64,000 bases of DNA from the NCBI GenBank assembly GCA_964542785.1, contig CAZIUK010000002.1, positions 49,927 to 113,926 on the forward strand, given 5' to 3'. This DNA comes from an uncultured Planctomycetales bacterium (GTDB lineage Bacteria > Omnitrophota > Gorgyraeia > Gygaellales > Profunditerraquicolaceae). The position numbers were made by a program, and so were the translations under genes. Each line of letters starts with the position of its first letter. Position 1 is the stretch's first letter. Below the pieces are notes generated by a model. The model was given only the letters and a program-made list of their open reading frames with translations, was not told where the DNA came from and did no database searches. Shown here in pieces: positions 1 to 45,648 of this stretch.

Positions 1-1
1 A

Positions 2-1045
2 ATACTTCAGGCGCTAAAAAAATTATCCGGTAAAAAAACAGTCATTATCCCTTCCTTTGTCTGCCCCCTTGTCCCCTTGGCGATAGAAAAAGCAGGATTA
101 AAAGTATCTGTCTGCGATATAACAAGCGAGGGTTTTGATTTTAACCTTGAAAGGCTAAATAATATCTGCCTTCAAAATAACGATATACTTGCGGTAATAG
201 TAGCCCACTTAGGCGGGATACCGGTTGACCTTGACCCGATTATGAATATAACTAAAGATAAAAAGATATTTGTAATTGAAGATTGCGCGCAAAGCCTAGG
301 GGCAAGTTATAAAAAGAGGCCTACCGGGACAATAGGCGACTTTGCTTTTTATAGCCTCTGCCGCGGCAAGGGTATAACAATATACGAAGGCGGAGCAATA
401 ACATGCAAGGATAATTTTTCCGACATAACCCAAGAGGTTTTTGAAGAGATATCAATAAATAATTACCTCTCAGAATCTTTAAAAATACTTGAGCTCTTTG
501 GCTATTGGGCATTTTACAGGCCGGAATTGTTCTGGTTTGCCTATAGACTCCCGCAGAAATTCTGGGAAGCGCAGAATAAGCAAGAGCGGGCGTCTATTGA
601 ATACTTTACTACTGACTTTCCACTACATAGGGTATCAACTTTAAGAAAATCGGTCGGACATACGCAATGGAGACGCATTAAAATAGAGATAGGCAAACAG
701 AGAGAAAAGGCAAAATATTACATAGAAGAAATTTCTGGCACTAGTGGCATAAAGCTTATCTTGGAAAAACCAGTAAGTTACTCAAATTACCCTTATCTAA
801 CCATTATATTTGAAGAAGAGGCAAAGCAAAAAAAAGCACTCGCACTTTTTAAAGAATCGGGTTTAGGGGTATCCAGAATATACCTTAGGGCAATCACAGA
901 TTACCGGTATTTAGATAAACTCTACTCTCCGCAGTCTTCCCCAAACGCCAAATCCATAGCCGCAAGGCATATTACTTTAAGCACAAACACATTCTTAAAT
1001 AAAGCCGAACAAAATAAAATAATAACAATATTAAAAAGGTTATAA
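2..1045 (+). CDS. DegT/DnrJ/EryC1/StrS-family PLP-dependent sugar aminotransferase (5'-truncated at window edge)
   Basis: The frame is open from nt 2 with no start codon in the window; the track start at 77 is an internal TTG. Translation ...VIIPSFVCPLVPLAIE..., IFVIEDCAQSLGASY and GDFAFYSL..GKGI..EGGAI match the conserved DegT-family blocks. Confidence 0.6.
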   Translation: MLQALKKLSGKKTVIIPSFVCPLVPLAIEKAGLKVSVCDITSEGFDFNLERLNNICLQNNDILAVIVAHLGGIPVDLDPIMNITKDKKIFVIEDCAQSLGASYKKRPTGTIGDFAFYSLCRGKGITIYEGGAITCKDNFSDITQEVFEEISINNYLSESLKILELFGYWAFYRPELFWFAYRLPQKFWEAQNKQERASIEYFTTDFPLHRVSTLRKSVGHTQWRRIKIEIGKQREKAKYYIEEISGTSGIKLILEKPVSYSNYPYLTIIFEEEAKQKKALALFKESGLGVSRIYLRAITDYRYLDKLYSPQSSPNAKSIAARHITLSTNTFLNKAEQNKIITILKRL

Positions 1046-1905
1046 TGATAATTTTTTCTCTTAAAGAAGACTTGCGCAATATAGACTCTATACCTGATTC
1101 CGGTTTTTTTATGGAAGGAGACAACAACCTTTGTTTTTTAATACATGGGTTAACCGGGACTGCAAGAGAAATGTACTCTATAGGAACGCGACTTAATAGA
1201 AACGGATTTTCAGTTGCAAGCCCTATGATGTATGGACATAACCGCTCATTATCTGTATTAAAGAGGTTACGGTGGCAAGATTTTTATGCGGGTATAAAAA
1301 AAGAGCTTTTAAAATATCTACCCTCCTTTGATAAGATATACGTAGCCGGGCTATCATTTGGTTCGCTTATAGGGCTTCTCTTGGCTTACGAATTCCCTAA
1401 AAAAGTCCGCGCGGTTAACTGCTTTTCTCCTACCCTTTTTTTTGATGGATGGAATACGCCTAAATCAAGGGTTCTTTTGCCACTTATATTCAAAACACCC
1501 CTTAAATACTATCTTTATCTTAAAGAAGAGCACCCTTATGGGATTAAAAATGAAAGGCTAAGGAAAAAGATAGCAGGATTCTATAAAAACGCAGGCTTAT
1601 TTGATTATAGCAAAGTACACCTCTATGGGTATCCAGTAATACCCGTCTCTAGTATGTATCAGAACCGGCTCTTAGCAAAGCATATAACAAGGTTGCTGCC
1701 AAAGATTAAAACACCGATTCAAATATTACAGGCAAAAGATGACGATACCACCAGCCCAAAGAACTCATTTTTTATATACGACCGTATAGGCTCAAGAGAC
1801 AAACGAGTTATATTATTGGAAAACTCATACCATATTATAATTGCTGATCAAGAAAGAAAAGTAGTGGCAAAGGAGGCACTCACTTTTTTTCAAAAATACA
1901 AATAA
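1045..1905 (+). CDS. alpha/beta-hydrolase fold esterase/lipase
   Basis: It has HGLTG, GLSFGS (GxSxG nucleophile elbow) and a late D/H region. A TAATG overlap with the upstream gene suggests coupling. Confidence 0.55.
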   Translation: MIIFSLKEDLRNIDSIPDSGFFMEGDNNLCFLIHGLTGTAREMYSIGTRLNRNGFSVASPMMYGHNRSLSVLKRLRWQDFYAGIKKELLKYLPSFDKIYVAGLSFGSLIGLLLAYEFPKKVRAVNCFSPTLFFDGWNTPKSRVLLPLIFKTPLKYYLYLKEEHPYGIKNERLRKKIAGFYKNAGLFDYSKVHLYGYPVIPVSSMYQNRLLAKHITRLLPKIKTPIQILQAKDDDTTSPKNSFFIYDRIGSRDKRVILLENSYHIIIADQERKVVAKEALTFFQKYK

Positions 1906-1907: not shown

Positions 1908-2825
1908 TTAGGGCTTTAAAACCGAGAGGATCTTAAGATTAGTAGCTTCATTTAGTTCTCCTATCCTCTCCTCTTGCAGGTTATCTGCCTTAACGTTAGA
2001 GGGATGGTCAAAACTAGAGGCAATACTTTTTAAAAAACTACGGTAGGCAGGCCTTGAGTAGTCCCCGGTTATATCAACTCCGACTATATCTAAATTATCT
2101 TTTATCAATTTTATCATCGTTAAAAGCTCATCTAAAGAAAAAAACCCTGACTCCCAATTAGTAAGGGCATAATCGTCTTTTAAACAATCTTTATCTATAG
2201 AAATGTAGGTTTTTTTTGTGGGGAGACTTAAGATAAGAGAGAGGAAAAAAGAGCTTAGGTTTTCTTCGGCAAGCTCATGCCAAAATACCTTTGTTGAAAT
2301 TACGCTTTTCTTTAGTTTAATTGATTTATTAAGAGGAACTCTTCTTAAAAAGACAAAAGAAGGTTTACTTTTATAAGGATAAATCTCTACCCTATTATTT
2401 TCTAATAATTTAAGGCTTCCGCTTTGAATAAAAGGAAACTGTATATCGGACGAAGAAACCCCGATTAAGATAGTTTTAATAATATTTTTATTTCTTAAGG
2501 CAAAACTGACCCATGAACCACACCCCATAGAAGGAGGAAGCTTATCCCAATCCGGGTGAAAATCAAAAACAATAAGTACGATAGGCTCATTAATTAGTCC
2601 GGTAAAAAGAGAGCTTATATGATGGAAGTCCCCTGAGCCTAAAAAATTAATCCCACCGCTTAGCTCTCTTATACGATCCTGGATAGCCCCTGCGGTATCC
2701 TTATTCATCCAAAGCCTAGCAGAGGAAGAAAAACTTTTAAGGTCTATTACCTTGGGAGAATATTTTGACAAGAGGCGCTTTTGACTGGTTAGGGTAGCAT
2801 CAAAATCCAGTATGCCGATATTCAT
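1908..2825 (-). CDS. ureohydrolase (arginase/agmatinase/formiminoglutamase)-fold protein
   Basis: GSGDFHHIS, FDFHPDWD and SIDKDCLKDD resemble the GGDHS / DAHxD / SxDxDxxDP metal-binding motifs of the arginase superfamily. The match is loose, so confidence is low. Confidence 0.35.
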   Translation of the reverse strand: MNIGILDFDATLTSQKRLLSKYSPKVIDLKSFSSSARLWMNKDTAGAIQDRIRELSGGINFLGSGDFHHISSLFTGLINEPIVLIVFDFHPDWDKLPPSMGCGSWVSFALRNKNIIKTILIGVSSSDIQFPFIQSGSLKLLENNRVEIYPYKSKPSFVFLRRVPLNKSIKLKKSVISTKVFWHELAEENLSSFFLSLILSLPTKKTYISIDKDCLKDDYALTNWESGFFSLDELLTMIKLIKDNLDIVGVDITGDYSRPAYRSFLKSIASSFDHPSNVKADNLQEERIGELNEATNLKILSVLKP

Positions 2826-2846
2826 AAAAAGATACGCAAGGCAAAA

Positions 2847-4265
2847 TTAACTCTTCTTTAAGGCCTTAGAGAGCGCTTCCTCAAATAAATCACAACCTAA
2901 ATCCATCTCTTTTTGGGTAATGTAGAAGGAAGGTGCTATGGTAAAGACATTTTTATAGTATCCTCCTACGTCTAATATTAATCCACGCCTTTTTCCCCCT
3001 GAGGTAAGCTTGCCGCTTAACCCGATATTAGTTATTCTATCCGTCAGCGCCTTATCCGGAGAATAACCGTCCTTGCCACACATCTCAACCCTTATTGCAA
3101 GGCCTAACCCATCAACATCTCCTATTTGGGGGTATTTTTTCTGTAAACTCTTAAAACGGTTTACTAAATACCTACCCTTCTTAGGGATATCTTCCTTAAA
3201 ATTAGATTCTTCTATCAGCTTCATAACCTCTAATCCTACTCTTGTTCCAAGAGGATTGGAAGAAAAAGTAGAATGAGTAGAACCCGGAGGGAATACCTTA
3301 GGAGAGATTAATTTTTCTTTAGCCCATACCCCGGATATAGGATTTAGGCCATTAGTCAAAGCCTTGCCAAAAACAATAATATCCGGTGTGATTCCGAAAT
3401 GCTCAATCGCCCACAATCTTCCTGTCCTAAAAAACCCCATCTGCACCTCATCATCAACTAAAAGAATACCGTAACGGTCCAGTATATCTTTTAATCCCGA
3501 AAAATAATCCTGCGGAGGGATTACATATCCTCCTGTCCCCTGAAGCGCCTCAACGTAAAAAGCGGCAAACTCGCATTTTTTTGTTTTGTTGTTAATTACT
3601 GAGTGATACTCAGTCTCAAAGAGCCGCTCAAATTGTTTTAAGCAATAAAGCCCGCAAGAATTCCTCTTCTTATCATAAGGACACCTAAAACAATATGGAT
3701 ACGGGATAAATAATGCCCTCTCTCCAAAATGCCCAAAACGCTCACGGTAACGAAAACTTGAGGTAATGGCGGTTGCGGCAAGCGTCCTTCCGTGATAACC
3801 TCCCATAAAAGCAAAGCAGAGGCTCCTGCCGGAATGATTCCTCACTAACTTAAGGGAATCCTCAAGAGCCGAAGAGCCTCCGACATTAAAATGCACTCTT
3901 CCTTTCTCTTTAAAGGTAGACTCATTTCTTTGAGCAATCTTAGCAGCTAACCTTATCTTCTCTGTATGCAGGTATTGACAGGCTAACTGCGGTAAAATAT
4001 CAATTTGTTTTTTAAGCGCGGTATTTAAGCGCTTATTTCTATAGCCAAAATTAACCGCAGAATACCACATCTGTAGGTCTAAATATTCAACTCCGTCAAT
4101 ATCATAAAGAAAACTCCCCTTAGCGGATTTAAAGACATTTAATTTATCCGTATAGTGGACAGTATCCCCCCAAGAACAATACTTAGCTTCTAAATTTAAT
4201 AAACCATCGGGCATGTTTGTCCTTTTACTATGCTTAATCTTTTTACCTATCAATTTTTTTGTCAT
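2847..4265 (-). CDS. class III pyridoxal-phosphate aminotransferase
   Basis: LDDEVQMGFFRTGRLWA and FGKALTNG (PLP-lysine block) are typical of the acetylornithine/GABA-type aminotransferase family. The start ATG overlaps the stop of the upstream HAD gene (ATGA). Confidence 0.7.
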   Translation of the reverse strand: MTKKLIGKKIKHSKRTNMPDGLLNLEAKYCSWGDTVHYTDKLNVFKSAKGSFLYDIDGVEYLDLQMWYSAVNFGYRNKRLNTALKKQIDILPQLACQYLHTEKIRLAAKIAQRNESTFKEKGRVHFNVGGSSALEDSLKLVRNHSGRSLCFAFMGGYHGRTLAATAITSSFRYRERFGHFGERALFIPYPYCFRCPYDKKRNSCGLYCLKQFERLFETEYHSVINNKTKKCEFAAFYVEALQGTGGYVIPPQDYFSGLKDILDRYGILLVDDEVQMGFFRTGRLWAIEHFGITPDIIVFGKALTNGLNPISGVWAKEKLISPKVFPPGSTHSTFSSNPLGTRVGLEVMKLIEESNFKEDIPKKGRYLVNRFKSLQKKYPQIGDVDGLGLAIRVEMCGKDGYSPDKALTDRITNIGLSGKLTSGGKRRGLILDVGGYYKNVFTIAPSFYITQKEMDLGCDLFEEALSKALKKS

Positions 4266-4924
4266 ACAAAGCTCCTTTTAAAATAATTATATACATCCTT
4301 TAGTGATCTATAAGCAAAACAAGCAAGTCTATTCTTCTTAAAATACTTCAATAAACTATCTTTGGCAAAGACGATATCGGCATACTTAGACGGGCAAATA
4401 TCCGAACGGCCGTCGCCTATATATATAATTATAGAATCGCGCGATATATTTGCCAAGAGATTTTTTGACTTACAGTGCGCGCAAATATCACATCTTCTAT
4501 TCCGATACGGGAAAAGAGGAATTAATTCGTTACCCTTAAAAACCAATTTATTTGAATAAATCTTTAGATTTTTTATCCCATTATTACGAAGGATCTGTTT
4601 TAAAATATAATCAAAGTTATCGCTTAATACAAAAGACTTAATTTTCTTTGAAGATAATAATTTTACCAACTTACTAAAATAAGGGTCAAGCTTTACTTCG
4701 GATAAATATTTATTTAAAGATACCCGGGTAATAGTCATCCCGCTTAACTGATCCTTTAAGCACTTCTGCGAACCTATCTTACCAGATTCCCATTCTTTTT
4801 CTAATTTTACCCAAAGGTTATCGCGCGAGAACATCGGCAACATGCTATCAAATACATCGCATGTAGCAATTGTATTATCAAAATCAAAAAAAACAATGCA
4901 TTTTTGAGGATTTATTATCTTCAT
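4262..4924 (-). CDS. HAD-superfamily subfamily IB phosphatase (MtnX/PSP-like)
   Basis: FFDFDNTIA (DxDxT motif I) and a late GDGRSD (motif IV) are present. The start is moved to the internal ATG (MKIINPQ...) at 4924; the track N-terminal extension would overlap the radical SAM gene. Confidence 0.55.
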   Translation of the reverse strand: MKIINPQKCIVFFDFDNTIATCDVFDSMLPMFSRDNLWVKLEKEWESGKIGSQKCLKDQLSGMTITRVSLNKYLSEVKLDPYFSKLVKLLSSKKIKSFVLSDNFDYILKQILRNNGIKNLKIYSNKLVFKGNELIPLFPYRNRRCDICAHCKSKNLLANISRDSIIIYIGDGRSDICPSKYADIVFAKDSLLKYFKKNRLACFAYRSLKDVYNYFKRSFV

Positions 4925-4935
4925 AATTATACTAC

Positions 4936-5946
4936 CTAAGAAAAAACTCCGGGGGTAACTTTCTGACAAAACTTGCAACTACCGGAAACTATATTATACT
5001 CCTCTATTCTAAATCCATCACGTTTAATTAATATCTTGCCACAATAGGGGCAAAGAGTATCTTCCCCCCAGCCATGGACATTCCCGGTATAAACAAACTT
5101 TACTCCCGCCTCTAACCCTATCCCTTGCGCCTCTTTTAATCTCTCTTCAAGAGTAATAGGATAACCAGCAAGCTGATAATTAGGATAAAAACGAGATATA
5201 TGCCAAGGAATATTAGGGTCTGTCCTAACTATGAAATCTGCTATTCCCCTTAACTCTTTTTTAGAGTCATTAACCCCTGGGATAACTAAGGTAGTTACCT
5301 CCACCCAAAGACATAAACTTTTAAATAACTCTATTGAACTTAAAACTGCCGACAAGGAAGCATTGCAAAATTTCTTATAGGAGTTTTCTTTAAAAAATTT
5401 TAAATCTATATTTACAGCATCTAAATAAGGCACTATTTTCCTAAGAGGCTCTTCTTTTATATACCCATTAGTCACAAAAATATTGCGCAGTTTATGTTTC
5501 TTAGCTATCTTTGCTACATCATAAGCATACTCAAAAAAAATAGTCGGTTCAGTATAGGTATAAGAAAGGCTACGGCAATCTTCCTTTAATGCTCCTTCAA
5601 CTAAATCCTCTGCAGACAGTATATTTTTTGAATAATTAATACCTAAGAAAAAAGGGTTTTGAGATATCTGCCAATTCTGACAAAAAGCACATTTAAAGTT
5701 ACACCCTGCGCAAGCAAAGGAAAAAGTTTTTGACCCGGGTAAAAAATGATACAAGGGTTTCTTTTCTACAGGATCAACGTTTACCGCGGCTATATTGCCG
5801 TAAGAATAAGTATAAAGCACGCCTCTCTTATTCTCCCGAACCCCGCATAAACCAAAACAACCTTCCTTTATACTACATTGATGAGAGCATAAATTACATT
5901 GAATTAAAGTATCGGATAATTTTTTATAAAAAGAGGCTTCCTTCAT
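4936..5946 (-). CDS. radical SAM enzyme, PflA-like, AmmeMemoRadiSam (AmrS) type
   Basis: An N-terminal CNLCSHQC...FGLCGVREN is followed by DPVEKKPLYHF, then CAGCNFKCAFCQNWQISQ (CxxxCxxC). This pattern is characteristic of the AmmeMemoRadiSam system radical SAM family. Confidence 0.6.
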   Translation of the reverse strand: MKEASFYKKLSDTLIQCNLCSHQCSIKEGCFGLCGVRENKRGVLYTYSYGNIAAVNVDPVEKKPLYHFLPGSKTFSFACAGCNFKCAFCQNWQISQNPFFLGINYSKNILSAEDLVEGALKEDCRSLSYTYTEPTIFFEYAYDVAKIAKKHKLRNIFVTNGYIKEEPLRKIVPYLDAVNIDLKFFKENSYKKFCNASLSAVLSSIELFKSLCLWVEVTTLVIPGVNDSKKELRGIADFIVRTDPNIPWHISRFYPNYQLAGYPITLEERLKEAQGIGLEAGVKFVYTGNVHGWGEDTLCPYCGKILIKRDGFRIEEYNIVSGSCKFCQKVTPGVFS

Positions 5947-5965
5947 CTATCATTTTATAAGAAAC

Positions 5966-6964
5966 CTACAACATCAATTCTTTTATCCGGGCATCTTCTA
6001 AGGGAGAAGAATTTATAAACACCCTCTCCTTCTCAGGGAAGCGCCTGAAAACTACTTTAGCCTCTTTTGAAGTTAAATCAAAATAACGACAGGCTATAGA
6101 GGCAGCAAAGGTTAATCTCTCTTTATTAAAATCTCCGATGCCTAAAGATACCGGGCCTGCAATATCTTCTTCGGGCATTAAAAGATAATCTCCGTCTTGG
6201 GTAGCCGCTTCTAAAAACTTATTTTCTTTTTCATTCCGCCCTACTATCAATTTTAAGTTCCTACCAATTCTAAAATGCCTGCCAAATTTCAATAATCTTA
6301 TACTTCTTAAACTTAACCCTTCATGAGAGATAAGGTCAACAAGTCTTCTTGAATATTGAGGGTCGGTTAAAAGACAGCCTCCTGAGGCATTAGGATAATC
6401 TTTAATTTTAAAATCTTTAGCAAGCGTAATTTGCTCCTTGCGGGAACGCCCAGATAACCCCAAGAGCTTATTACGATTAACCCAACCTTTATCTTCGGGG
6501 ACAGTAGGATCAAGAAGTCTTGCTGAGAGCGGCCTAAGCAAAAACCCTTTTAACGCACTCTTCTCTTCAATCAAACTAAGCGCGCGTTTATGTTGAGACA
6601 TGGGACGCTGGCCTAATACTTCACCGGTTATAATAAATTGCGCACCTAATTTAAGCATTAATTCCCGGGCCTTGCTTAACATAAGTATCTTACAATCAAT
6701 ACAAGGATTCATCTGTGAACCAAAACCATAAGTAGAATTTAAGATAAGATTAAGGTATTCTTCTTTTATATCAAAGACCGAAAGATTCTCATTTAAAGAA
6801 TCGTTAACAAGTTTAGGCAAACCTTCATCGGTATTTTTATTTAGGCTCTCCTGATAAAAAGGCATATTGAAATTCACGGGGATAATACCTATGCCCTGCT
6901 CTTTAATAATCCTTGCGGCAAGTAAGCTATCCAACCCACCAGAAATAAGGGCAAGTGCTTGCAT
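5966..6964 (-). CDS. PP-loop ATP pyrophosphatase, ThiI/TtuA-like sulfurtransferase family (no THUMP domain)
   Basis: It has the SGGLDS PP-loop near the N-terminus. CIDCK...ITGEVLGQRPMSQHKRAL resembles the ThiI ITGE(S/A)LGQ block. Confidence 0.45.
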   Translation of the reverse strand: MQALALISGGLDSLLAARIIKEQGIGIIPVNFNMPFYQESLNKNTDEGLPKLVNDSLNENLSVFDIKEEYLNLILNSTYGFGSQMNPCIDCKILMLSKARELMLKLGAQFIITGEVLGQRPMSQHKRALSLIEEKSALKGFLLRPLSARLLDPTVPEDKGWVNRNKLLGLSGRSRKEQITLAKDFKIKDYPNASGGCLLTDPQYSRRLVDLISHEGLSLRSIRLLKFGRHFRIGRNLKLIVGRNEKENKFLEAATQDGDYLLMPEEDIAGPVSLGIGDFNKERLTFAASIACRYFDLTSKEAKVVFRRFPEKERVFINSSPLEDARIKELML

Positions 6965-7067
6965 AAAGAATCGACTCTTACCTTACCCTAAGTTAGGTCT
7001 TCTTCCTTTATTAGCCTTTTTAGAACGCCAGTTAAGCTTTCCCCTGCGTTTGCGCTTCCCCATTTCT

Positions 7068-9861: not shown

Positions 9862-10080
9862 TTATTCTTTTGCTATAGCTAAAGTTATTACACCTGCTAA
9901 AATCAAGAACAGGCCGATACAACCTTTAACAATAATCAAAAGTAGTTTCCACCATCTTAAAATAGATATAGCTCCTAAAGCTAGAAAGACTATACCAAGA
10001 AGAACTTTTAAAATAGTAGAAAGGACTTTCTTGCCTTGAGCACAACAACTCTTCTCCTCTTTCTTAATCTCTTCTGCCAT
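9862..10080 (-). CDS. small two-TM membrane protein, unknown function
   Basis: MAEEIKKEEKSCCAQGKK is followed by two hydrophobic helices. The ATG at 10080 is preceded by a strong AGGAGG Shine-Dalgarno lying inside the last codons of the upstream LpxL-like gene. The track start at 10116 would overlap that gene. Confidence 0.4.
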   Translation of the reverse strand: MAEEIKKEEKSCCAQGKKVLSTILKVLLGIVFLALGAISILRWWKLLLIIVKGCIGLFLILAGVITLAIAKE

Positions 10081-10094
10081 TTCACACCTCCTCT

Positions 10095-11006
10095 TTAACT
10101 TGGTTGGCTCTTCCATCTACGGTGAATCCATCCCCACTCCGCAGGATAATTACATATGTATCTTTCTATTATATCGGTAAGCCTCTGTATGTTTATCAGG
10201 ATTGTATCTTCTGAGTTAGAAGATACCTGTAAATCAATAGCCGGTTCAAATATTATTTTATGCCGATCATCTTTTTGTCGTAAGATAAAACAAGGGACTA
10301 AAGCTGCTTTAGTGCGTTGAGCAAATACTATCGGCCCAGTTGCCGTAGCGGCTTTTTTGCCGAAAAAGTTTACAAATACCCCTCCAGTCCCAAAGTTCTG
10401 ATCAATGGGTATAAATACTATCTCATTGCTACGCAAGGCCTGTATTGTATTATTAACACAAGTATTTCTTGGTTGGCTATATATAGTTTTAACCCCAAAC
10501 TTATCGCGTTTCTTTAAAAAAATCTTCTCTACCCTAGGATCCCTCATGGGGCGCATAATCCCGCCAACTTTATAGCCCTTAACAGCAAGGGCACCTAACA
10601 ATAACGGGAAATTGCCAAAATGGGCGCTCACCAATATCACGCCTTTGCCTAAAGACAAAGCCTTATCTAAATTTTCTTTCCCTGCTATAAAAACCCTCTC
10701 CTTCAAAAGGTGTGGATTATCCATCAAAAACATAAGCTCTACCGCTGATTTAGCTATATAGTCAAAACACTCTCTTACTATACTACCTAATTCCTTATCA
10801 TTCTTCTTTTTGCCAAAGGCAATCCTTAAACTATCAAAAGCAATCTGTTTCTGCCTCCTTGCAAAGGTATAGGCTAAAAAACTTACTACCCGAGCAAACC
10901 CGTACAAAGACTTAGGCGGGATGATCTTAACTATCAAAGAACTTATATTTAACCCTATCCATCCTAAAAACCGGCTGAAGGTCTTTTTTATCTTTTTAAA
11001 ATCCAT
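10095..11006 (-). CDS. lipid A biosynthesis (Kdo2-lipid IVA) lauroyl/myristoyl acyltransferase, LpxL/HtrB family
   Basis: The N-terminal TM is followed by ILVSAHFGNFPL (HX4D-type acyltransferase block). The length is about 300 aa. Confidence 0.6.
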   Translation of the reverse strand: MDFKKIKKTFSRFLGWIGLNISSLIVKIIPPKSLYGFARVVSFLAYTFARRQKQIAFDSLRIAFGKKKNDKELGSIVRECFDYIAKSAVELMFLMDNPHLLKERVFIAGKENLDKALSLGKGVILVSAHFGNFPLLLGALAVKGYKVGGIMRPMRDPRVEKIFLKKRDKFGVKTIYSQPRNTCVNNTIQALRSNEIVFIPIDQNFGTGGVFVNFFGKKAATATGPIVFAQRTKAALVPCFILRQKDDRHKIIFEPAIDLQVSSNSEDTILINIQRLTDIIERYICNYPAEWGWIHRRWKSQPS

Positions 11007-31422: not shown

Positions 31423-31498
31423 TGGTGGAGCTGAGGGGGATCGAACCCCTGACCCCTTGCATGCCATGCAAGTGCTCTCCCAGCTGAGCTACAGCCCC
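31423..31498 (-). tRNA. tRNA-Ala (anticodon GGC), CCA encoded
   Basis: The reverse complement GGGGCTGTAGCTCAGCTGGGAGAGCACTTGCATGGCATGCAAGGGGTCAGGGGTTCGATCCCCCTCAGCTCCACCA folds into a cloverleaf. It has the G3:U70 alanine identity pair and anticodon loop AT-GGC-AT. Confidence 0.85.
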
Positions 31499-31562
31499 AA
31501 ATATTAATCATTGACCTTTGTTATTTTAGAATATAAAATGATTTCCGTCAAATCAAATTACA

Positions 31563-31645
31563 GCCGAAGTGGTGGAATGGCATACACGTCGGTCTCAAAA
31601 ACCGATGGGCTTACGCCCGTAAGGGTTCAACTCCCTTCTTCGGCA
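31563..31645 (+). tRNA. tRNA-Leu (anticodon CAA), type II long variable arm, no encoded CCA
   Basis: GCCGAAGTGGTGGAATGGCATACACGTCGGTCTCAAAAACCGATGGGCTTACGCCCGTAAGGGTTCAACTCCCTTCTTCGGCA has acceptor GCCGAAG/CTTCGGC and anticodon loop CT-CAA-AA. The variable-arm stem is GGGC/GCCC and the T-loop is TTCAACT. Confidence 0.85.
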
Positions 31646-31786: not shown

Positions 31787-34700
31787 TTATCTCTTACCTA
31801 GAAATACCTCCCTTAATTCTTCAATAGACCTATTTATCTGAAGCACAACGAGTATATCTTTAAGGGTTAATTCAGTCTGCTGGCAATGTTCTTCTTCTTC
31901 CCGTAAAATTCCTGAAATACAGCTTATGACTTTGTCTGCGTCTTCAACTACCTGCCCTTTAATACAAGAGGCTTGTATATACTCTTTAATCCTCTGTGAA
32001 GAAGGGATAATACCGGCATTAACCATACGCTCAATCTCTTGCCACTCTTGATTTAGGTTTATACTTGAGAGGTTATTTAAAGAAGAGTGGCTGATATTAG
32101 CGCTTAGATTACTGATAGCCTGAACAACTACAGGCAGGGCAGTAAAGTCAATACCACCCATATTATTTTGGCCTACGCCTAAAGTAAGACCTTCTTGAGG
32201 CGCTTTAGCTTGCGGTAAGTCGAAAGATCCCTGCTTTATCCTCAATATGTCTTCCATATCTTTAGCTAGATCATGGGTATCTTTGTTTAATCCAGGGTAT
32301 TTTTGAGCTACCCGCCCTGCCATAACCTCATGACTAAGCCCTGCGATTATAGAACGTAAATCATTGTTGTGCTGGAAAAAATACGAATCCCCTATAAATA
32401 CCTTATCTCCTAATCTTACAGGACCGTTAATCTTATCCAGAAATCTTGTAACCATAAATGCCTCTGGTACAACTATTATCTCATTTAAGTCTATCCTTCC
32501 AAATCCAAATTTTTGCTCAAGGGTAGAAATTATATCTTTAGGTATAACAATACGCCTTGCTCCAATTAAGGCTGCTATTTCAGCAATAGCTTCTACATCC
32601 TCTTTGGCAACCCGACCATTTAAGGTATAATCTTCTTTAAGGGTACTCCTTGGCCTTGGCCTATCTATATCAAACATGACGAACTTACCATCCTCTATAC
32701 TGTTATGCGTATCTTTCCCAAAAATGCGAGTAAAATAATCCCAGCTCTTTTCATGTAAAGGCTTCAAAGATACACGGAGCCCTTCCTTATAGATATCCAT
32801 AAGAGATATTGTTTCCTTATTGCCAAAATTAAAAGAAGGCCCCAAATATCCAGGCAAAGCAATACCACTACACCCCAACCCTATAGCTAAGTCATACAAT
32901 ACCTTAAATAGGCTCATCAAGAGCTCTTCTCCATCCAAAGAAGGAGAATTAATAGTATCTATAGTAAGGACCTTGTCGCCTGCATAGTCCTTGGCAACCA
33001 TAAGGCCTATATAGCCTTTTAAAGCTTTTCCTTTGTAGACAAAGAAATACTTAGTATCTTCATGCATAGCCCTTGTATAAGGATTTCCTTTATCATCAGT
33101 ATCAAAAGAACAATCTATAATACCTGCCCTGCCGCGAAATACGCCTAAAAACCCCTGCTCAATTAGGCGGTAAGACTCAACCCCTTCTTGCTTGATTACC
33201 CTTACTTTAGATATTTCTTTATATACTTTAGAGGTTAGGCTTTGAAAAACCCCTGCTAACCCTTTGATACTTTCCATATTTAAGCTTAGGGAATTAGGCA
33301 GATGGTGCTTGTAATCCTCATAGAAATTCTTAAAGGCAGTTACCATAACCTCCTGGTCATGTGAGAACATCTGTGCCAACAACCCTTCTTCAAGCATGAT
33401 ATCGCTTATAATCAGGTCGCGCATCAGAAAAAGGCATCTTCTGCCTATATCTTGCTCTCCTAACCTATCCTTTACCAAAGAGAAAATTATCTTATAAAAC
33501 TTTCTTCTATTAGATAGAAGCTCTTGTTTAATAACTTCTTCCTGTGGATATTCAACCCTGAAACGCTCTCCTTCTTTTATCAAACCTTTATCTATCGCTT
33601 CTTGTCGCTTAAGAAGATAATAAAGGTTCTGAATATTAAAAACCTTACTCTGTGGAAAATCCTCATTTATCCAAGATAAACTATCTATCCTCTGACGTAT
33701 CCTTATTAATTCATCTAAATTCTGGTTAAATACGTTTAAATCAATACTAGATGTATCTATTATGCGCACTCCCTGGCTATTCAACTCTATAATTATTGGC
33801 TTAGCTGCCTTGGTAAAAAGGTTTTTAAAGTATCCAGGGTACTCTTTATCAAATTGAATAAGTTTATTTATCCTCTCTTTAAACTCTTCATAGGTTACAT
33901 CTATACCATTGATCTCTAAACCTAAATAAGCAAGCCATACTTCTTCTTCATTATTATAATCAAATCCAGAATTAATCATGTTCTCTGCCTTAAGCTTAAG
34001 CTTTAAGATAAAAGCCCTGGAGTCAGAAGCAGAAAAATAATCCTTAACCAACTCTTCACGAAAAGGCAGGTTATTCTCTTGCCATAGTTTGTATTTTTCG
34101 CAATCTTTGCTTAAGACCCCTCCTTTTTCTATTAGCTTAGCGTAAAGTGGGGCTAAAGCCTCTACAGCTACTTGGCAGACATAGAAATCCTCATCTTTAA
34201 GCCTATCCTCTAATAAAGATAAGGAAACTTTCTCTCCTCTTTCTATTAACTTAGCGTAAAGTGGAGCTAAAGCCTCTATTGCTGTTTGACGGACACGAGG
34301 ATCCTGATCTTTGAGTTTATCCTCTAATAAAGATAAAGTCATCTCTCCTTTTTCTATTAGCTTAGTGTAAAGTGGAGCTAAAGACTTAATTACTGTTTGG
34401 CGGGCATAGGAATCAAAAACTTTGAGTTTATCCTCCAATGAAGATAAAGAGACTTTTTCTCCTCTTTCTATTAGCTTAGCGTAGAGGAAAGCTAAAGATT
34501 TTATTGCTGTTTGGCGAACACGAGGATCCGGATCTTTGAGTTTATCCTCTAATAAAGATAAAGAGATTTTTTCTCCTTTTTCTATTAATTTAGCGTAGAG
34601 GAGAGCTAAAGATTTTATTGCTGTTTGGCGGATATGGAAATATTGATCTTTAAGCTTGCCCTCTAATAAAAGAATATTAAATATTATCTGTTGTGATGTT

Positions 34701-36232
34701 GCTTCGACAAAAGACAACTTAACCACTTTCTCTCTTTCTATAGCTCCACGCTCTGACCCAACTCCTAACGCTCCTTCTGCTTGCCGGCTTAAAGCCTCAG
34801 TTATTTCTTGTATTACTAATTCCCGGTCATTTTCATTTCCTTTAAGTATACAGGCTATGGCTTGCTCGCTAGGCTTATCGTAATAACCAAAACCCTTGCC
34901 CGGATTAAATATACCAAAAAGGCTAGCCCTTGTTAAAAATTCCTGCTGGCCTAAGACTTCTATCTTAACTTCATACTTTTCTTCTAATTCTTCTAAGGAT
35001 AGCTTTAAATCTCTTTCAGAAATATTACTTACCGCTTTATCCTCCATTATACGGACTATATCATCTCTTAACCCAGGCTGGATATACACCTCTTCATTAA
35101 AGGCTAATTGAGGGAGTTGACCTTGCGCAGGCATACAAATACTCTTCCCTCCCCCAAGGGTAGTTATCTCTACGCCAATCTGCTGAGAAACAAGACTGCC
35201 AACCTGGATCCCTCCCGAGAAGTAACTTCTGACTACCTGTCTAAAGGGGGTGGATACAAGAGTAGTAAAACTATATTCTCCGTCTTTGAATGATTTCTGA
35301 TATGCCTTAAAATAGGTATCTTTGGAGTAGGATTCTTTTAAAGCAAGGTTAGTTAAATCCTTACAGTCAATTATAAAAGAATAAGGGTTAGCCCTCTTGT
35401 TTTTATTACGGGCCTTAAACCACTGGGCTAAAATTAAGGAATAATAGACCTGCCTCAAGGGAGCGTATTTCTTAGCTGTATTTATATCCTTGGTAAGTTT
35501 AGGAATGATTAACTCCCTTATTAGCTGGCTTGAGTACTCATTAAGCTTCTTTAGGCGTTCGTCTTTGAAGTCATAAAGGACATTATCCTTTAGATGATCC
35601 TGCTCAAGCATCACCTTTAAGGTTGCCTTGTAGATGTAGGCAGAATTAGAGGTCTCTCTTATGATAATCTCATCAGGGACTATCCAAGGTCTAGTTAAGG
35701 TAGGAATAGTTATATCTTGAGAACCAAAGAGCTCCTCGGCTTTTTGGTAAAGCTTGTCCCAATACTTCTTACCTTCGGGATTTACAGGGGAGGTAAAACA
35801 AGCAGCATCTTTCTTAAGCTCTAAGTCTGCCTCAAGGAAAATTCTTCCTACATCGGTCTGGGCAAGAAGAGGATTTATAATATTATCAGGCGAGTCAGGA
35901 CGTAAGTTTACCCAGAAGAAGTCATCTGGTAAGGTCAAGCCAATAAAAAAGTATTTAAGCAGATTTTTTGAGGTATTCTCAAGGCCAACCCTTGAGGGAT
36001 TCTTTATAGCGCCCTTATCAATTAAAAGCCTAAAATTATCTTCTTTTGGGTTGTATTCTAAGTAGCGCAGATGCAAAGGCCTAAACCTATCTACGATTAA
36101 GGCATTACGCATTACACTCAGATGATTTGCAATGTCAAGCTGGGCGGCTACTTGAGGGAAACCTGAGTACTGAAGGAAAAGGATAAAGATAATAATAAAA
36201 CAGACTAATTTAAATGGTTTGTTTATTCTCAT
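31787..36232 (-). CDS. giant (~1480 aa) secreted/membrane-anchored protein with central HEAT/PBS-lyase-like repeats, function unknown
   Basis: The start is set at the ATG at 36232 (MRINKPFKLVCFIIIFILFLQY..., hydrophobic signal/anchor); the track start at 36310 is TTG. The central region has five 37-38-aa repeats, (D)P(D)PRVRQTAIKSLAxLYAKLIExGEKVSLSLLEDKLK. No recognisable catalytic motif was found. Confidence 0.5.
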   Translation of the reverse strand: MRINKPFKLVCFIIIFILFLQYSGFPQVAAQLDIANHLSVMRNALIVDRFRPLHLRYLEYNPKEDNFRLLIDKGAIKNPSRVGLENTSKNLLKYFFIGLTLPDDFFWVNLRPDSPDNIINPLLAQTDVGRIFLEADLELKKDAACFTSPVNPEGKKYWDKLYQKAEELFGSQDITIPTLTRPWIVPDEIIIRETSNSAYIYKATLKVMLEQDHLKDNVLYDFKDERLKKLNEYSSQLIRELIIPKLTKDINTAKKYAPLRQVYYSLILAQWFKARNKNKRANPYSFIIDCKDLTNLALKESYSKDTYFKAYQKSFKDGEYSFTTLVSTPFRQVVRSYFSGGIQVGSLVSQQIGVEITTLGGGKSICMPAQGQLPQLAFNEEVYIQPGLRDDIVRIMEDKAVSNISERDLKLSLEELEEKYEVKIEVLGQQEFLTRASLFGIFNPGKGFGYYDKPSEQAIACILKGNENDRELVIQEITEALSRQAEGALGVGSERGAIEREKVVKLSFVEATSQQIIFNILLLEGKLKDQYFHIRQTAIKSLALLYAKLIEKGEKISLSLLEDKLKDPDPRVRQTAIKSLAFLYAKLIERGEKVSLSSLEDKLKVFDSYARQTVIKSLAPLYTKLIEKGEMTLSLLEDKLKDQDPRVRQTAIEALAPLYAKLIERGEKVSLSLLEDRLKDEDFYVCQVAVEALAPLYAKLIEKGGVLSKDCEKYKLWQENNLPFREELVKDYFSASDSRAFILKLKLKAENMINSGFDYNNEEEVWLAYLGLEINGIDVTYEEFKERINKLIQFDKEYPGYFKNLFTKAAKPIIIELNSQGVRIIDTSSIDLNVFNQNLDELIRIRQRIDSLSWINEDFPQSKVFNIQNLYYLLKRQEAIDKGLIKEGERFRVEYPQEEVIKQELLSNRRKFYKIIFSLVKDRLGEQDIGRRCLFLMRDLIISDIMLEEGLLAQMFSHDQEVMVTAFKNFYEDYKHHLPNSLSLNMESIKGLAGVFQSLTSKVYKEISKVRVIKQEGVESYRLIEQGFLGVFRGRAGIIDCSFDTDDKGNPYTRAMHEDTKYFFVYKGKALKGYIGLMVAKDYAGDKVLTIDTINSPSLDGEELLMSLFKVLYDLAIGLGCSGIALPGYLGPSFNFGNKETISLMDIYKEGLRVSLKPLHEKSWDYFTRIFGKDTHNSIEDGKFVMFDIDRPRPRSTLKEDYTLNGRVAKEDVEAIAEIAALIGARRIVIPKDIISTLEQKFGFGRIDLNEIIVVPEAFMVTRFLDKINGPVRLGDKVFIGDSYFFQHNNDLRSIIAGLSHEVMAGRVAQKYPGLNKDTHDLAKDMEDILRIKQGSFDLPQAKAPQEGLTLGVGQNNMGGIDFTALPVVVQAISNLSANISHSSLNNLSSINLNQEWQEIERMVNAGIIPSSQRIKEYIQASCIKGQVVEDADKVISCISGILREEEEHCQQTELTLKDILVVLQINRSIEELREVFLGKR
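34120..34650. repeat. five tandem copies of a ~114-nt near-identical repeat inside the giant gene
   Basis: Plus-strand units begin roughly at 34124, 34238, 34349, 34463 and 34577 (TCTATTAGCTTAGCGTAAAGTGGAGCTAAAG...TTTATCCTCTAATAAAGATAAAG). They encode the HEAT-like protein repeats. Confidence 0.8.
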
Positions 36233-36370
36233 TACAAGCTTAATTTTAGGTAACTTTAAATTTAACCGGCTACTTAAGATAAAGTTTACAACATAGACAA
36301 GTAAAAACAAGGGTAATTCGGGAATACTTTGAAAAGGGTTTCTTTAGCATTCTTCTTGCTGAATATACGA

Positions 36371-42213: not shown

Positions 42214-43698
42214 TTAAAATCCGTACCAGTAACTTACCAATGGTTTAGATTCAAGGGAGGTATCTTTTATTATATTCTTCATACGCGTATATTCCAAGAA
42301 CCCTTCACGGCCAAGCTCCTTGCCAAAACCGCTTTGTTTAAATCCTCCATAAGGAAATTGATTATAAAACATCCCATAAGTATTTATCCATACTATTCCG
42401 GCATTGATTTTTTTAGCTGCCTCTTCAGCAATCTTCATATCACGGGTAAAGATAGCGGAGGCAAGAGCAAAATCAGAGTTATTCGCTAAAGATACTGCTT
42501 CCTCAAAACTACTGAAACGCTCAACCAAAGCCACAGGGCCAAATGCCTCTTCTTTAAATGTGCGCATATTAGGCTTAACCCCTTCTAAAATAGTAGGCTC
42601 AAAAAAATACCCATTTTTTAAAGCCGGATCCTGCGGAATTTTGCCTCCGCATAAAACCTTAGCGCCTTCTATCTTAGCCTTTTCAATATAAGCAATAATT
42701 TTTTTCCGTTGGCTATCGCTGATTAAAGGGCCCATTTGAGTCTCATGATTATCAGCCAAGCCTAATTTTATCGCCTTAGCTTTATCTACGAAACTATTTA
42801 TAAATTTATCATATATAGGATTTTGCACAAAGATACGCGACATCGCCGTACACATCTGTCCTTGATTTAAAAATACAGAGCAAAGCACACTATTAACCGC
42901 TGTATCAATATCAACATCATCAAAAATTAAACTTGCGGATTTCCCACCTAATTCCATTAGCAACTTTTTAATATTGGCAGAAGAGTACCGCAATATCTCT
43001 TTACCGACTTCAAGGCTACCGGTAAAAGAGAGCATATCTATTCTTTTATCAGAAGAAAGTAACTCGCCTATACGCGCCCCCGGGGCATTGATAATATTTA
43101 AAGCTCCTTTTGGCAAACCTGCCTCATGGGCAATACTACCTAACTCAAAGGCGGATAATGGCGTTAAGCTTGAAGGTTTTAGAATAACGGTATTGCCAGA
43201 GGCTAAGGCAGAAGCTAATTTCCAAGAAGCAATCAAAAGCGGATAATTCCAAGGGATAATTAAAACTGTTAATCCTAAAGGCTCACGTAATAAATACCCT
43301 TCAGCCTCTTCTGCCGGTACAATAGCCTCCGAAGATAGATATTTTTCAAAATTATTAGCAATATGCTCAAAGGTTTTGGCAGAAGAAGGGACATCCATAA
43401 AAGTAGTCTCTTTAATAGGCTTACCTGTATTTTCAGTTTCAATAGCTGCCAAATCTCCTGCCTTGTCAAGGATACCCTCGGCAATCCTTAAAAGAAGACT
43501 CTTACGCTCTTTAAAAGACATATTAGGCCAACTACCGCTATCAAAGGCATTACGCCCGCTTTCAATAGCTGATTCTATCTCCTTAGAAGAAGCAATTGAG
43601 GCTAAAGCAATAACCTTCCCAGTTGAAGGATTAAGCACATTCTGCTTCTCCTTAGTCTCTATAAACTCTCCGTTTATATAAAGCGGAATCTCTTTCAT
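42214..43698 (-). CDS. NAD(P)-dependent aldehyde dehydrogenase
   Basis: LMELGGKSASLI (catalytic Glu block) and FLNQGQMCTAMSRIFV (catalytic Cys) are present, as is the Rossmann GxGxxG-like FTGSLEVGKEI. Confidence 0.8.
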   Translation of the reverse strand: MKEIPLYINGEFIETKEKQNVLNPSTGKVIALASIASSKEIESAIESGRNAFDSGSWPNMSFKERKSLLLRIAEGILDKAGDLAAIETENTGKPIKETTFMDVPSSAKTFEHIANNFEKYLSSEAIVPAEEAEGYLLREPLGLTVLIIPWNYPLLIASWKLASALASGNTVILKPSSLTPLSAFELGSIAHEAGLPKGALNIINAPGARIGELLSSDKRIDMLSFTGSLEVGKEILRYSSANIKKLLMELGGKSASLIFDDVDIDTAVNSVLCSVFLNQGQMCTAMSRIFVQNPIYDKFINSFVDKAKAIKLGLADNHETQMGPLISDSQRKKIIAYIEKAKIEGAKVLCGGKIPQDPALKNGYFFEPTILEGVKPNMRTFKEEAFGPVALVERFSSFEEAVSLANNSDFALASAIFTRDMKIAEEAAKKINAGIVWINTYGMFYNQFPYGGFKQSGFGKELGREGFLEYTRMKNIIKDTSLESKPLVSYWYGF

Positions 43699-44696
43699 AT
43701 AATCCTTACTTCCTTAAACAACGCAAAAAGCCGGGTAAAAGGAACATACCACTTTGAAAGCTGGCCTAACTGCCCGGATAACTTCATCTTACCCTGAGTT
43801 ACCGCAACAAAGGAATCAAGCTTCCCTAAGAACACCTGCCTCCATACCTCCGGCACAGCAGAGATTACAAAAGGAGCATCGCTATCAAAATCTAATTTCA
43901 CTATTCTACCTTTTTCAAAATTAAACCTGTAGGCATCCTCTTTCCCATCCATTTTAATCGCAAGTTTTACTGTCAAATCAAGCTCTCTTCCTTTTTGCCC
44001 GATAAACTCATCCTTATTTACTAAATCTACGATTGCCTGAATATGCTCTTTAGAGAACATCGGCAAAGCCACATTTTTATTTAAATCCCTCTTTATCTCC
44101 TTATCTAAATCATCAAACAGGCTCTTCTCAAAAATCCTAGCTACCGCAGCAGTCCTTACTGCCTCTTCCAGCGCTTGAATAAGGCTTAAAGAATCTAAAA
44201 AATTATCTCCTATTGCAACAACCCCATGACTCTTTAAAACTACAAGGTTGCTACTCTTTAACGCCTCAATCACCTCTATCGGCTTGGTAACCGTAGGAGT
44301 CTCCTGCTTAATCACAGGGACATCCCCCAAATAAAACTTTGTCTCAAAAGTTAAGGCTTTTAAACTTGAAGTAACAGCAAAATAACCATTAATCAAAGGA
44401 GGATGACAATGGAGCACCTTAGTTGCTTTTAAATTTTTATAGACTAAGCTATGCAAAGGCAGCTCTGAACTTGGCTTAATATCCCCCTTATATCGATTTG
44501 AATTTAATTCTACCCTTACAATATCCTTATACTTTAAATCCCCCAAGGATACGCCAGAGGCAGTAATTAAAATATACCGCCTATCAAGCTTAGCGCTTAT
44601 ATTCCCGGATTTTGCTACTGCTAAACCTGTTTGATATATCCTTCTTCCTACCTCTATAATTTCTCTCTTTAAGTTTTTCTCTCTGCTAAAAAACAT
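43695..44696 (-). CDS. class II (FucA/Ald2-type) aldolase fused to a C-terminal SCP2 sterol-carrier-like domain
   Basis: In the N-terminal ~190 aa, AKSGNISAK, PSSELPLH (catalytic Glu), VLHCHPP and KSHGVVAIG (Zn His ligands) align with L-fuculose-1-P aldolase. The C-terminal ~140 aa has an SCP2-like pattern (GKEDAYRFNFEKGRI...KMKLSGQLGQL). Confidence 0.6.
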   Translation of the reverse strand: MFFSREKNLKREIIEVGRRIYQTGLAVAKSGNISAKLDRRYILITASGVSLGDLKYKDIVRVELNSNRYKGDIKPSSELPLHSLVYKNLKATKVLHCHPPLINGYFAVTSSLKALTFETKFYLGDVPVIKQETPTVTKPIEVIEALKSSNLVVLKSHGVVAIGDNFLDSLSLIQALEEAVRTAAVARIFEKSLFDDLDKEIKRDLNKNVALPMFSKEHIQAIVDLVNKDEFIGQKGRELDLTVKLAIKMDGKEDAYRFNFEKGRIVKLDFDSDAPFVISAVPEVWRQVFLGKLDSFVAVTQGKMKLSGQLGQLSKWYVPFTRLFALFKEVRII

Positions 44697-44708
44697 CTCT
44701 CTTCCCCT

Positions 44709-45641: not shown

Positions 45642-45648
45642 AGTATCT

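Follow-up and report, generated by a model that had tools for sequence, protein, structure and literature searches.

Several described systems invite comparison with the five genes considered here, which occupy positions 1908-6964 of a 64,000-nucleotide stretch of Candidatus Omnitrophota DNA (contig CAZIUK010000002.1 of assembly GCA_964542785.1; hereafter the window) and encode a PP-loop protein, a radical S-adenosylmethionine (SAM) enzyme, a HAD phosphatase, a class III pyridoxal phosphate (PLP) enzyme and a ureohydrolase-fold (arginase-fold) protein. The radical SAM enzyme has its counterpart in the AmmeMemoRadiSam system; a gene-neighbourhood link for AMMECR1 was reported in 2007 (PMC2034487), and in the literature we searched the system itself appears only incidentally, in annotation tables. 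The PP-loop protein resembles the ThiI+DUF814 proteins, which are predicted to replace the THUMP-containing ThiI in the synthesis of 4-thiouridine at position 8 of tRNA (s4U8), with their NFACT-R domain binding the tRNA, and a survey of their gene neighbourhoods found TusA to be the sole conserved partner (Burroughs and Aravind, 2014, PMC4075521). The ureohydrolase-fold protein bears comparison with the superfamily of SpeB, proclavaminate amidinohydrolase, guanidinopropionase and arginase, and the genes around it with the Arn pathway of Enterobacteria, which modifies lipid A with 4-amino-4-deoxy-L-arabinose (L-Ara4N).

The initial annotation of this stretch had taken the five genes for one set, suggestive of small-molecule, cofactor or modified-nucleoside tailoring. 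Our comparison with related genomes leads to a different conclusion. Each of the proteins belongs to a known superfamily, and the five-gene set is not a system; it probably represents two evolutionarily separable units, which stand side by side within a long and densely packed collinear run, all on a single strand, in a streamlined genome of Candidatus Omnitrophota, and may share one transcript but not one pathway.

Layout and conservation of the five genes

All five genes named in the initial annotation are indeed present as open reading frames (ORFs) on the minus strand, and under the right family names. What we call Unit A comprises the gene for the PP-loop protein (6964..5966, 332 residues) followed by that for the radical SAM enzyme (5946..4936, 336 residues), and Unit B is the trio of genes for the HAD phosphatase (4924..4262, 220 residues), the class III PLP enzyme (4265..2847, 472 residues) and the ureohydrolase-fold protein (2825..1908, 305 residues). 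Read off the sequence in that order, the junctions measure 19, 11, -4 and 21 nt, which bears out the short gaps described before as well as the ATGA overlap, located at 4262-4265 between the HAD and class III genes. The HAD gene starts at the ATG at 4924, 11 nt past the radical SAM stop, and not at an upstream TTG, in agreement with the gene call on L001, a contig whose shared genes are 100% identical to those of the window. Unit B has two convergent partners on the plus strand, the gene for an alpha/beta hydrolase (1045..1905; lysophospholipase-like; Pfam Hydrolase_4, 70.8 bits) and that for a DegT/DnrJ/EryC1-type sugar aminotransferase (1..1045), the 5′ end of which is cut by the window edge (Pfam DegT, 114 bits for the truncated ORF).

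We compared the string with about 170 related loci (174 were fetched; they are cited by L number and carry the taxon labels given in their database records). The synteny in related genomes that the initial annotation had named as a test was found in at least ten of them, with all five genes in order in L009, L015, L171, L089, L096, L099, L104, L113, L115 and L123, but the conservation does not stop at the five genes: it extends over a collinear block of about 15 unrelated genes that runs from Lnt, PIG-L, adenosine kinase, LpxL-like, BioY and CsgG-like genes to DegT. Because the same conservation covers about ten functionally unrelated flanking genes, it reflects collinearity. In genomes further removed, a break falls between the radical SAM and HAD genes, and the trio keeps instead the alpha/beta hydrolase gene, DegT, a FemAB-like gene and a pair of EamA genes. 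The junction between the PP-loop and radical SAM genes is the most stable of the region and that between the HAD and class III genes the second most stable; it is the radical SAM/HAD junction that breaks.

This separation is clearest in 80 metagenome loci anchored on the ureohydrolase-fold gene (37-57% identity), which were scored by tblastn against all candidate partners and through a de novo clustering of the ORFs on their flanks. Where at least 6 kb was available on both sides (13 loci), the HAD gene and the EamA pair were present in all 13, the class III and FemAB-like genes in 11 each and the DegT and alpha/beta hydrolase genes in 10 each, while the radical SAM gene was found in three and the PP-loop gene in two. 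Similarly, of the 27 loci that extend 6 kb or more upstream, the HAD gene occurred in 22, the class III gene in 19, the radical SAM gene in seven, and the PP-loop and alpha/beta hydrolase genes in six each; the EamA pair, FemAB-like and DegT genes, which lie mostly downstream, were left out of this count. The trio therefore travels mostly without the radical SAM gene, and this comparison speaks against a single tailoring set. Moreover, around the trio the DegT, FemAB-like, EamA and hydrolase genes occur in at least six orders or orientations, with the alpha/beta hydrolase gene in several positions and orientations, and to stay together in spite of such reshuffling is characteristic of a functional cluster. 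The radical SAM and PP-loop genes were met in only one collinear arrangement, never rearranged beside the trio, and wherever both occur in these loci they are accompanied by the CsgG-like gene of that block. Individual loci illustrate the point: an insertion of three genes separates the radical SAM and HAD genes of L006, and L007 and L008 have the trio and neither gene of Unit A.

Does the tight packing of the five genes nevertheless single them out, as the initial annotation had proposed? It does not. The median gap over the 51 same-strand junctions of the window is 11 nt, and 35 of the 51 are 25 nt or less; since such gaps are typical of the window, spacing says nothing special about the five genes. 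The tight run also goes on upstream through four unrelated genes, namely a 26-residue ORF, the CsgG-like gene, a CitMHS/ArsB-type transporter gene and BioY. Pfam assignment of the window ORFs of at least 120 residues showed the neighbouring genes to be a run of unrelated housekeeping functions, with envelope and secretion genes (LpxL-like acyltransferase, PIG-L deacetylase, Lnt, SecA, MurJ, LptE, BamD-like), nucleic-acid and translation genes (RF2, UvrC, ComEC, LeuRS, endonuclease IV, RlmN), an adenosine kinase and an RND efflux system. A scan of the window for promoters and terminators gave counts equal to the shuffle expectation and was of no help with transcript limits. Tight spacing and co-orientation are thus whole-genome traits and no evidence for a dedicated operon; by the same criteria, BioY, the CsgG-like lipoprotein and the transporter would have to be added to the "operon".

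Radical SAM enzyme and PP-loop protein

The radical SAM enzyme passes the hidden Markov model check that the initial annotation had suggested: it scores 339.1 bits against NCBIfam TIGR04337 ("AmmeMemoRadiSam system radical SAM enzyme"; cutoff 220), over model positions 2-333 of 349. It also matches Pfam Radical_SAM (68.2 bits) and carries the Cx3Cx2C motif of the [4Fe-4S] cluster as CNFKCAFC, together with a cysteine-rich N-terminal stretch and a CxxC...CxxC arrangement at the C-terminus. A search of PDB sequences gave no match to it. The second-best NCBIfam model is a glycyl-radical activase, at 62 bits. We rejected an identity as a PflA/NrdG-type activase, a possibility raised at the outset together with a partner encoded nearby: with the activase models it reaches 35-62 bits, where the cutoffs are 131-500, TIGR04337 scores at least five times higher, and Pfam detected no glycyl-radical enzyme among the window ORFs of at least 120 residues, the large ones being SecA, LeuRS, a HEAT-repeat protein and AcrB.

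In its score and cluster motif, then, the enzyme is like that of the AmmeMemoRadiSam system; in its surroundings it is not. The initial annotation had remarked that neither AMMECR1 nor Memo lies alongside, and for the window this was confirmed, as no match to PF01871 (AMMECR1) or PF01875 (Memo) was obtained from ORFs of at least 120 residues. As phmmer probes we used sequences of human MEMO1 and of the AMMECR1 domain, which Pfam confirmed at 261.6 and 159.5 bits, respectively; neither gave a hit at E≤10 in the six-frame translations of the window and the 174 loci (about 2 Mb by our estimate), a searched sequence that held no positive control. The RGChG motif, near-invariant in AMMECR1 (PMC2034487), was likewise absent from the window and the loci, except for chance matches in a small membrane peptide. 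What failed was the accompanying assumption that this enzyme normally travels with AMMECR1 and Memo. We examined the 80 loci of its closest relatives, with one genome per GTDB species, at 48-88% identity, from Omnitrophota, Aminicenantes, Bathyarchaeia, Desulfobacterota and other groups, and not one of the 80 has either gene within 10 kb. The missing neighbours are therefore the rule in this clade and no anomaly, and the neighbourhood link of 2007 (PMC2034487) does not hold for it.

The protein with the chance motif match is small and hydrophobic (9862-10116, minus strand), ends in ...KGCIGLFLILAGVITLAIAKE and matches no Pfam family. In many loci from Omnitrophota a conserved counterpart lies between BioY and the LpxL-like gene, encoded by genes of 66-71 residues in L170-L174.

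The PP-loop protein matches Pfam ThiI (40.8 bits) and, over its C-terminal 100 residues, NFACT-R_2 (DUF814; 71.3 bits), and its close homologues are named "tRNA 4-thiouridine(8) synthase ThiI" by NCBI. It has the architecture of the ThiI+DUF814 proteins described by Burroughs and Aravind (PMC4075521): the same two-domain order with the NFACT-R_2 domain fused, no THUMP or rhodanese domain, and the signatures SGGxDS (here the PP-loop SGGLDS), CxxC (NPCIDCK; the family criteria name an internal cysteine as well) and GRxRxxQ (GRSRKEQ). It differs from them in its company, for the neighbour of those proteins is TusA, whereas the constant neighbour of the window gene is the TIGR04337 radical SAM gene, a partner not described there. 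No TusA was found among the called genes near the PP-loop gene in L002, L006 and L169-L174, nor among the window ORFs of at least 120 residues; TusA itself has about 80 residues, and smaller ORFs were not scanned systematically. The PP-loop protein, too, had no match in a search of PDB sequences. We know of no ThiI+DUF814 protein that has been tested biochemically. By analogy, the enzyme of Unit A would bind tRNA through its NFACT-R_2 domain, adenylate U8 with ATP and thiolate it to s4U.

How constant is this pairing? In six loci anchored on the PP-loop gene (L169-L174), selected solely by the length of available sequence, the radical SAM gene lies directly downstream in all six, with an ATGA-type 4-nt overlap in four, even though both flanks turn over: CsgG-like, Zip transporter and FeoAB genes all occur as the upstream neighbour, and what follows the radical SAM gene may be ThiE, a gene of the isochorismatase family, the HAD and class III genes or unrelated small genes. 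Three of the six run on into the HAD and aminotransferase genes and one of them into the ureohydrolase-fold gene. The small genes that follow the radical SAM gene in L169, L170 and L006 are not of one family and are absent from the window. The 80 radical SAM-anchored loci give another picture. There the PP-loop gene is directly upstream only in L009, L010, L011, L014 and L015; six other Omnitrophota loci are without it as a neighbour, one more is uninformative because its contig ends, and the remaining 68, named for other taxa, have none of the four partner genes. The full trio directly follows the radical SAM gene only in L009 and L015. Upstream housekeeping genes are kept in order in L009, L014 and L015, which points to collinearity.

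In a number of these genomes, at loci L013-L071 (Aminicenantes and unclassified), L019, L053, L087 and L059, the surroundings of the radical SAM gene have an RNA-repair character. Archease and RtcB genes lie 1-5 kb downstream of it in most Aminicenantes-type loci (>30), where an endonuclease III gene is directly upstream. Two Desulfobacterales loci and L087 (labelled Deltaproteobacteria) show the order RtcB then archease, and in a Nitrospirae locus RtcB adjoins the radical SAM gene. As this link crosses phyla and outlasts rearrangement, it hints that this radical SAM enzyme has a role related to RNA.

These observations lend some substance to the alternative that survives best, namely that the PP-loop and radical SAM proteins are a functional pair, the latter acting either on the RNA that is the substrate of the ThiI+NFACT-R enzyme or on the ThiI+NFACT-R protein, with Unit B separate; the two would then make up a module for tRNA or RNA modification specific to Omnitrophota. 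The adjacency holds through the turnover of both flanks in the PP-loop-anchored loci; it recurs in L006, L009-L011, L014 and L015 and in seven ureohydrolase-anchored loci; the same radical SAM clade stands near RNA-repair genes in other phyla; and AMMECR1, the usual partner of such enzymes, is predicted to take part in RNA base modification (PMC2034487; PMC4075521). Nonetheless, we consider it rather unlikely. The pairing is limited to part of one phylum and is missing from 6 of the 11 informative Omnitrophota radical SAM loci as well as from the other 68 loci. In L028, a complete chromosome, the two genes lie 8.6 kb apart on opposite strands, and L108 has kept the radical SAM gene and lost its PP-loop neighbour. 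The pair was never met rearranged, so that inherited adjacency would fit equally well, and the 2014 survey found no conserved neighbour of ThiI+DUF814 genes other than TusA (PMC4075521). It is a doubtful proposition that the translationally coupled pair forms a true module which gives the orphan radical SAM enzyme a substrate class, be it tRNA, another RNA or an RNA-modifying enzyme, and equally so that the enzyme acts with or after the PP-loop thiolase and that the archease/RtcB linkage reflects the same RNA-directed role. If it were true, this would be the first concrete substrate class for an orphan enzyme of the AmmeMemoRadiSam type.

Other genes also recur beside the radical SAM gene. An isochorismatase/nicotinamidase-family gene follows it directly in two Omnitrophota and two Syntrophales loci (L012, 1020-1580; L024, 11038-11592; L072, 7098-7691; L074, 9531-10124), and after one intervening small gene in the Omnitrophota loci L006 (6509-7108) and L170 (9498-10091). 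NadA and nicotinate phosphoribosyltransferase-like genes, identified by eye, recur near it as well, mostly in Aminicenantes-type loci.

The ureohydrolase-fold protein and the cluster around it

A highly divergent member of Unit B is the ureohydrolase-fold protein, which matches PF00491 (Arginase) at a borderline 22.9 bits (threshold 22) and has 861 homologues, of which every one with a source name is from Omnitrophota. Its predicted structure (AlphaFold; pLDDT 87.3, pTM 0.89) retrieves E. coli agmatinase, proclavaminate amidinohydrolase and guanidinopropionase as top Foldseek matches (7lox, 1gq6, 4dz4 and 3nip; probability 1.0, TM 0.55-0.60, E about 1e-8 to 1e-9) at 12% identity. Across 28 aligned homologues the motifs GSGDFH, DxHPD and SxDKD do not vary, and a profile search places them opposite the metal motifs that agmatinase and arginase have as GGDH, DAHxD and SxDxD. 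The protein thus shares with the superfamily its fold and three metal-binding motifs, and differs from it in its low identity (about 12%), its Pfam score at threshold, a phenylalanine inserted in GGDH (giving GSGDFH) and the restriction of its named members to Omnitrophota. By alignment it seems to differ also at the substrate-binding site, where the guanidinium-binding glutamate (DxxE) aligns to an invariant glycine in GxDITG(D/E)YS, with an acidic residue one position on; a guanidino substrate is therefore not assured. Judging from motifs and model, it is probably an active, very divergent binuclear metallohydrolase.

The other two proteins of the trio are assigned at the level of family. 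The HAD protein is of the HAD-IB type (MtnX-like/PHOSPHO-type), with 105.9 bits against TIGR01489 (cutoff 81.55), 58.6 bits against Pfam Put_Phosphatase and a DxD motif in FFDFDNT; its nearest solved relatives, at low scores, are MtnX and phosphoserine phosphatases. We rejected MtnX itself as its identity, as the scores are about one fifth of the cutoffs (TIGR03333, 60.4 bits against 303.2; NF007103, 70.9 against 292), and likewise a role in methionine salvage, since the MtnA-like, aldolase and phosphorylase genes of the window lie 38 kb off and look like a separate set of the dihydroxyacetone phosphate (DHAP) shunt. The overlap between the HAD and aminotransferase genes is kept in L001, L006, L007, L171, L172 and L174. 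The class III enzyme matches PF00202 at 265 bits and has the expected residues (the lysine of FGKALTNG and a DDEVQ motif). It reaches no equivalog cutoff, the best NCBIfam models scoring about half of theirs, and its nearest solved relatives, at about 190-200 bits, are the Ala/Ser and broad-spectrum racemases of Pyrococcus and GABA-aminotransferase-like enzymes; on this similarity it could be a transaminase or a racemase.

Around the trio, the eight-gene cluster is completed by the alpha/beta hydrolase, DegT and FemAB-like genes and the EamA pair, often with PagL, and its named members are all from Omnitrophota. On L001, a contig of the same organism that reaches past the left edge of the window, we found the full DegT gene (404 residues), a FemAB-like acyltransferase gene, two small EamA genes and PagL. 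In L007 and L008 the trio stands among genes for an acyl carrier protein (ACP), a ketoacyl synthase (KAS), DegT, two small EamA proteins, a FemAB-like protein, an ArnT-like PMT_2 protein, a polysaccharide deacetylase, an epimerase and a formyltransferase. Clustering of the flanking ORFs yielded no further members of Unit B, only genes of the collinear block or sporadic ones (Zip, Rrf2, permease, sensor kinase). The FemAB-like protein had no match in a PDB sequence search, a literature search on PF04339/DUF482 gave nothing functional, and one on Omnitrophota and lipid A gave, by titles and abstracts, nothing relevant to the cluster.

The closest parallel is the Arn pathway. Like it, Unit B has a DegT-family aminotransferase (as ArnB) and a pair of small EamA proteins with four transmembrane segments, nearest to ArnE and ArnF, and lies near genes of lipid A remodelling (PagL and LpxL-like); in L007 its neighbours include an ArnT-like PMT_2 gene and genes for a formyltransferase, an epimerase/dehydratase and a polysaccharide deacetylase. 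Unlike it, Unit B has the HAD, class III PLP, ureohydrolase-fold, alpha/beta hydrolase and FemAB-like proteins, which have no Arn counterparts, while ArnA, ArnC, ArnD and ArnT are absent from the window and L001, with analogous genes only in L007 and L127. We rejected an assignment to the Arn pathway proper: all equivalog tests failed, with the EamA pair at 33.6-36.1 bits for ArnE (threshold 92) and 33.8-39.2 bits for ArnF (threshold 99), and the DegT protein at 72.8 bits for ArnB (cutoff 631). The resemblance is one of logic only.

By that logic, DegT would aminate a nucleoside diphosphate (NDP)-linked keto-sugar to give an NDP-amino sugar, the amine of which would be N-acylated by the FemAB-like GNAT protein; the ArnE/F-like EamA pair would then flip the polyprenyl-phosphate-linked sugar across the inner membrane, where a transferase of the GT-C type, with its gene either alongside (as in L007 and L127) or elsewhere, would load it onto lipid A or another envelope acceptor. 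The HAD, class III and ureohydrolase-fold proteins would make, supply or trim an amine or guanidino substituent, and the remodelling of acyl chains would fall to PagL and the alpha/beta hydrolase. Every chemical step in this scheme, and the identity of the acceptor, is proposed by analogy; what the sequences show are family memberships, metal-site motifs and counts of co-occurrence. ACP and KAS genes occur near Unit B in about seven loci, and this proximity leaves room for a beta-amino-acyl lipid product.

Could the left arm of Unit B instead be catabolic, or concerned with polyamines, and have nothing to do with the envelope? The ureohydrolase-fold and class III proteins would then be an arginase-pathway pair like RocF and RocD of Bacillus, which take arginine to ornithine and on to glutamate semialdehyde. 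The fold is right and its metal motifs are intact, among NCBIfam models the class III enzyme best fits that of the acetylornithine aminotransferase family, and its relatives in the PDB include aminotransferases for ornithine, GABA and putrescine. We regard this as highly unlikely all the same: identity to any characterised ureohydrolase is 12%, neither enzyme reaches an equivalog, the guanidinium-binding glutamate aligns to the invariant glycine, and the HAD gene, translationally coupled to the class III gene, would have no role. Nor do the lasting partners fit, as these are the DegT, FemAB-like, ArnE/F-like and alpha/beta hydrolase genes with PagL or ACP/KAS, not amino-acid permeases nor proline or glutamate genes.

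A single pathway for all five enzymes, in which the PP-loop protein would adenylate or thiolate a substrate, the radical SAM enzyme subject it to radical chemistry, and the three enzymes of Unit B (phosphatase, aminotransferase and ureohydrolase) complete the product, is most improbable, for what speaks in its favour (five co-oriented and closely spaced genes, an order kept in at least ten related loci at about 50% protein identity, and no other obvious partner for the radical SAM enzyme in the window) is outweighed by the equal conservation of some ten unrelated flanking genes, the radical SAM/HAD break in L011, L014, L169, L170 and L173 with the three-gene insertion in L006, the occurrence of the trio without the radical SAM gene in most loci, and a tight spacing that is the genome norm.

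Several points weigh against a division into two units, or against the functions we propose for them. Adjacency of the radical SAM and HAD genes is kept in 3 of the 6 PP-loop-anchored and 7 of the 19 trio-containing loci, and the metagenome loci are not a phylogenetically balanced or unbiased sample. There is no recognisable terminator or large gap within the five genes and the few upstream of them, and the five may be co-transcribed and hence co-regulated. They may also share a substrate, such as a modified nucleoside with an amino-acid-derived side chain, as far as sequence alone can tell. The function suggested for Unit B draws on sub-threshold similarity to ArnE/F and on family-level annotation only, and to our knowledge no member of Unit A or Unit B has been characterised experimentally.

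Other features of the window and wider significance

The 26-residue ORF between the CsgG-like and PP-loop genes (6983-7063, minus strand; MGKRKRRGKLNWRSKKANKGRRPNLG) keeps 85-100% identity across some 24 distinct loci from Omnitrophota, where other proteins are only about 50% identical, and it always follows the CsgG-like gene. Such identity amid neighbours at about 50% marks it as a real and very strongly constrained basic micro-protein. Its sole family match is non-significant (the mycobacterial 50S ribosomal protein bL37; 7.8 bits, E 3.9), and its C-terminal SKKANxGRxPN presumably resembles that of bL37; it may be an unannotated ribosomal micro-protein.

The names given to homologues of its proteins place the window in Candidatus Omnitrophota. 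Gene orientation in it is extremely biased, the minus strand carrying about 52 of the 55 genes, and the GC skew stays negative throughout (-0.01 to -0.30). Given this uniform skew and co-orientation, the whole 64 kb lies on one replichore.

Three further regions, all on the minus strand, deserve mention. At 42214-46422, genes for an aldehyde dehydrogenase, a class II aldolase-like protein (333 residues), an IF-2B/MtnA-type isomerase and a PNP_UDP_1 phosphorylase stand in a row; the set looks like a DHAP shunt for the salvage of 5'-deoxyadenosine or methylthioadenosine, which would suit a genome with many radical SAM enzymes. The genes at 47356-56844 form a cluster of lipid- or polyketide-like character and encode an SDR protein, an MFS transporter, a Polyketide_cyc2 protein, a putative cyclase, a B12-binding radical SAM enzyme, a tandem pair of ketoacyl synthases, a 199-residue protein without a family and an ApbA/PanE-type reductase. 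Finally, a protein of 1507 residues is encoded at 31787-36310, flanked by divergent genes for tRNA-Ala(GGC) and tRNA-Leu(CAA) at 31423-31645; only HEAT/PDS5/condensin-like repeats are recognisable in it, at residues of about 540-730. Giant proteins of this kind are typical of Omnitrophota.

We return to the two units. A word of caution applies to annotation of this kind in general: in streamlined genomes with a strong strand bias, genes do not make up a pathway merely by pointing the same way, overlapping by 4 nt and keeping their order among close relatives. What is new here lies at the level of association, and consists in the pairing of the PP-loop and radical SAM genes in Omnitrophota and in the eight-gene cluster around an orphan clade of ureohydrolases. 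The former, together with the linkage to RtcB and archease, is a testable hint that the radical SAM enzyme acts on RNA. As for the latter, Omnitrophota are ultra-small, possibly predatory or epibiotic and largely uncultured bacteria, and Unit B, being widespread among them, could explain an unusual surface chemistry in this phylum.

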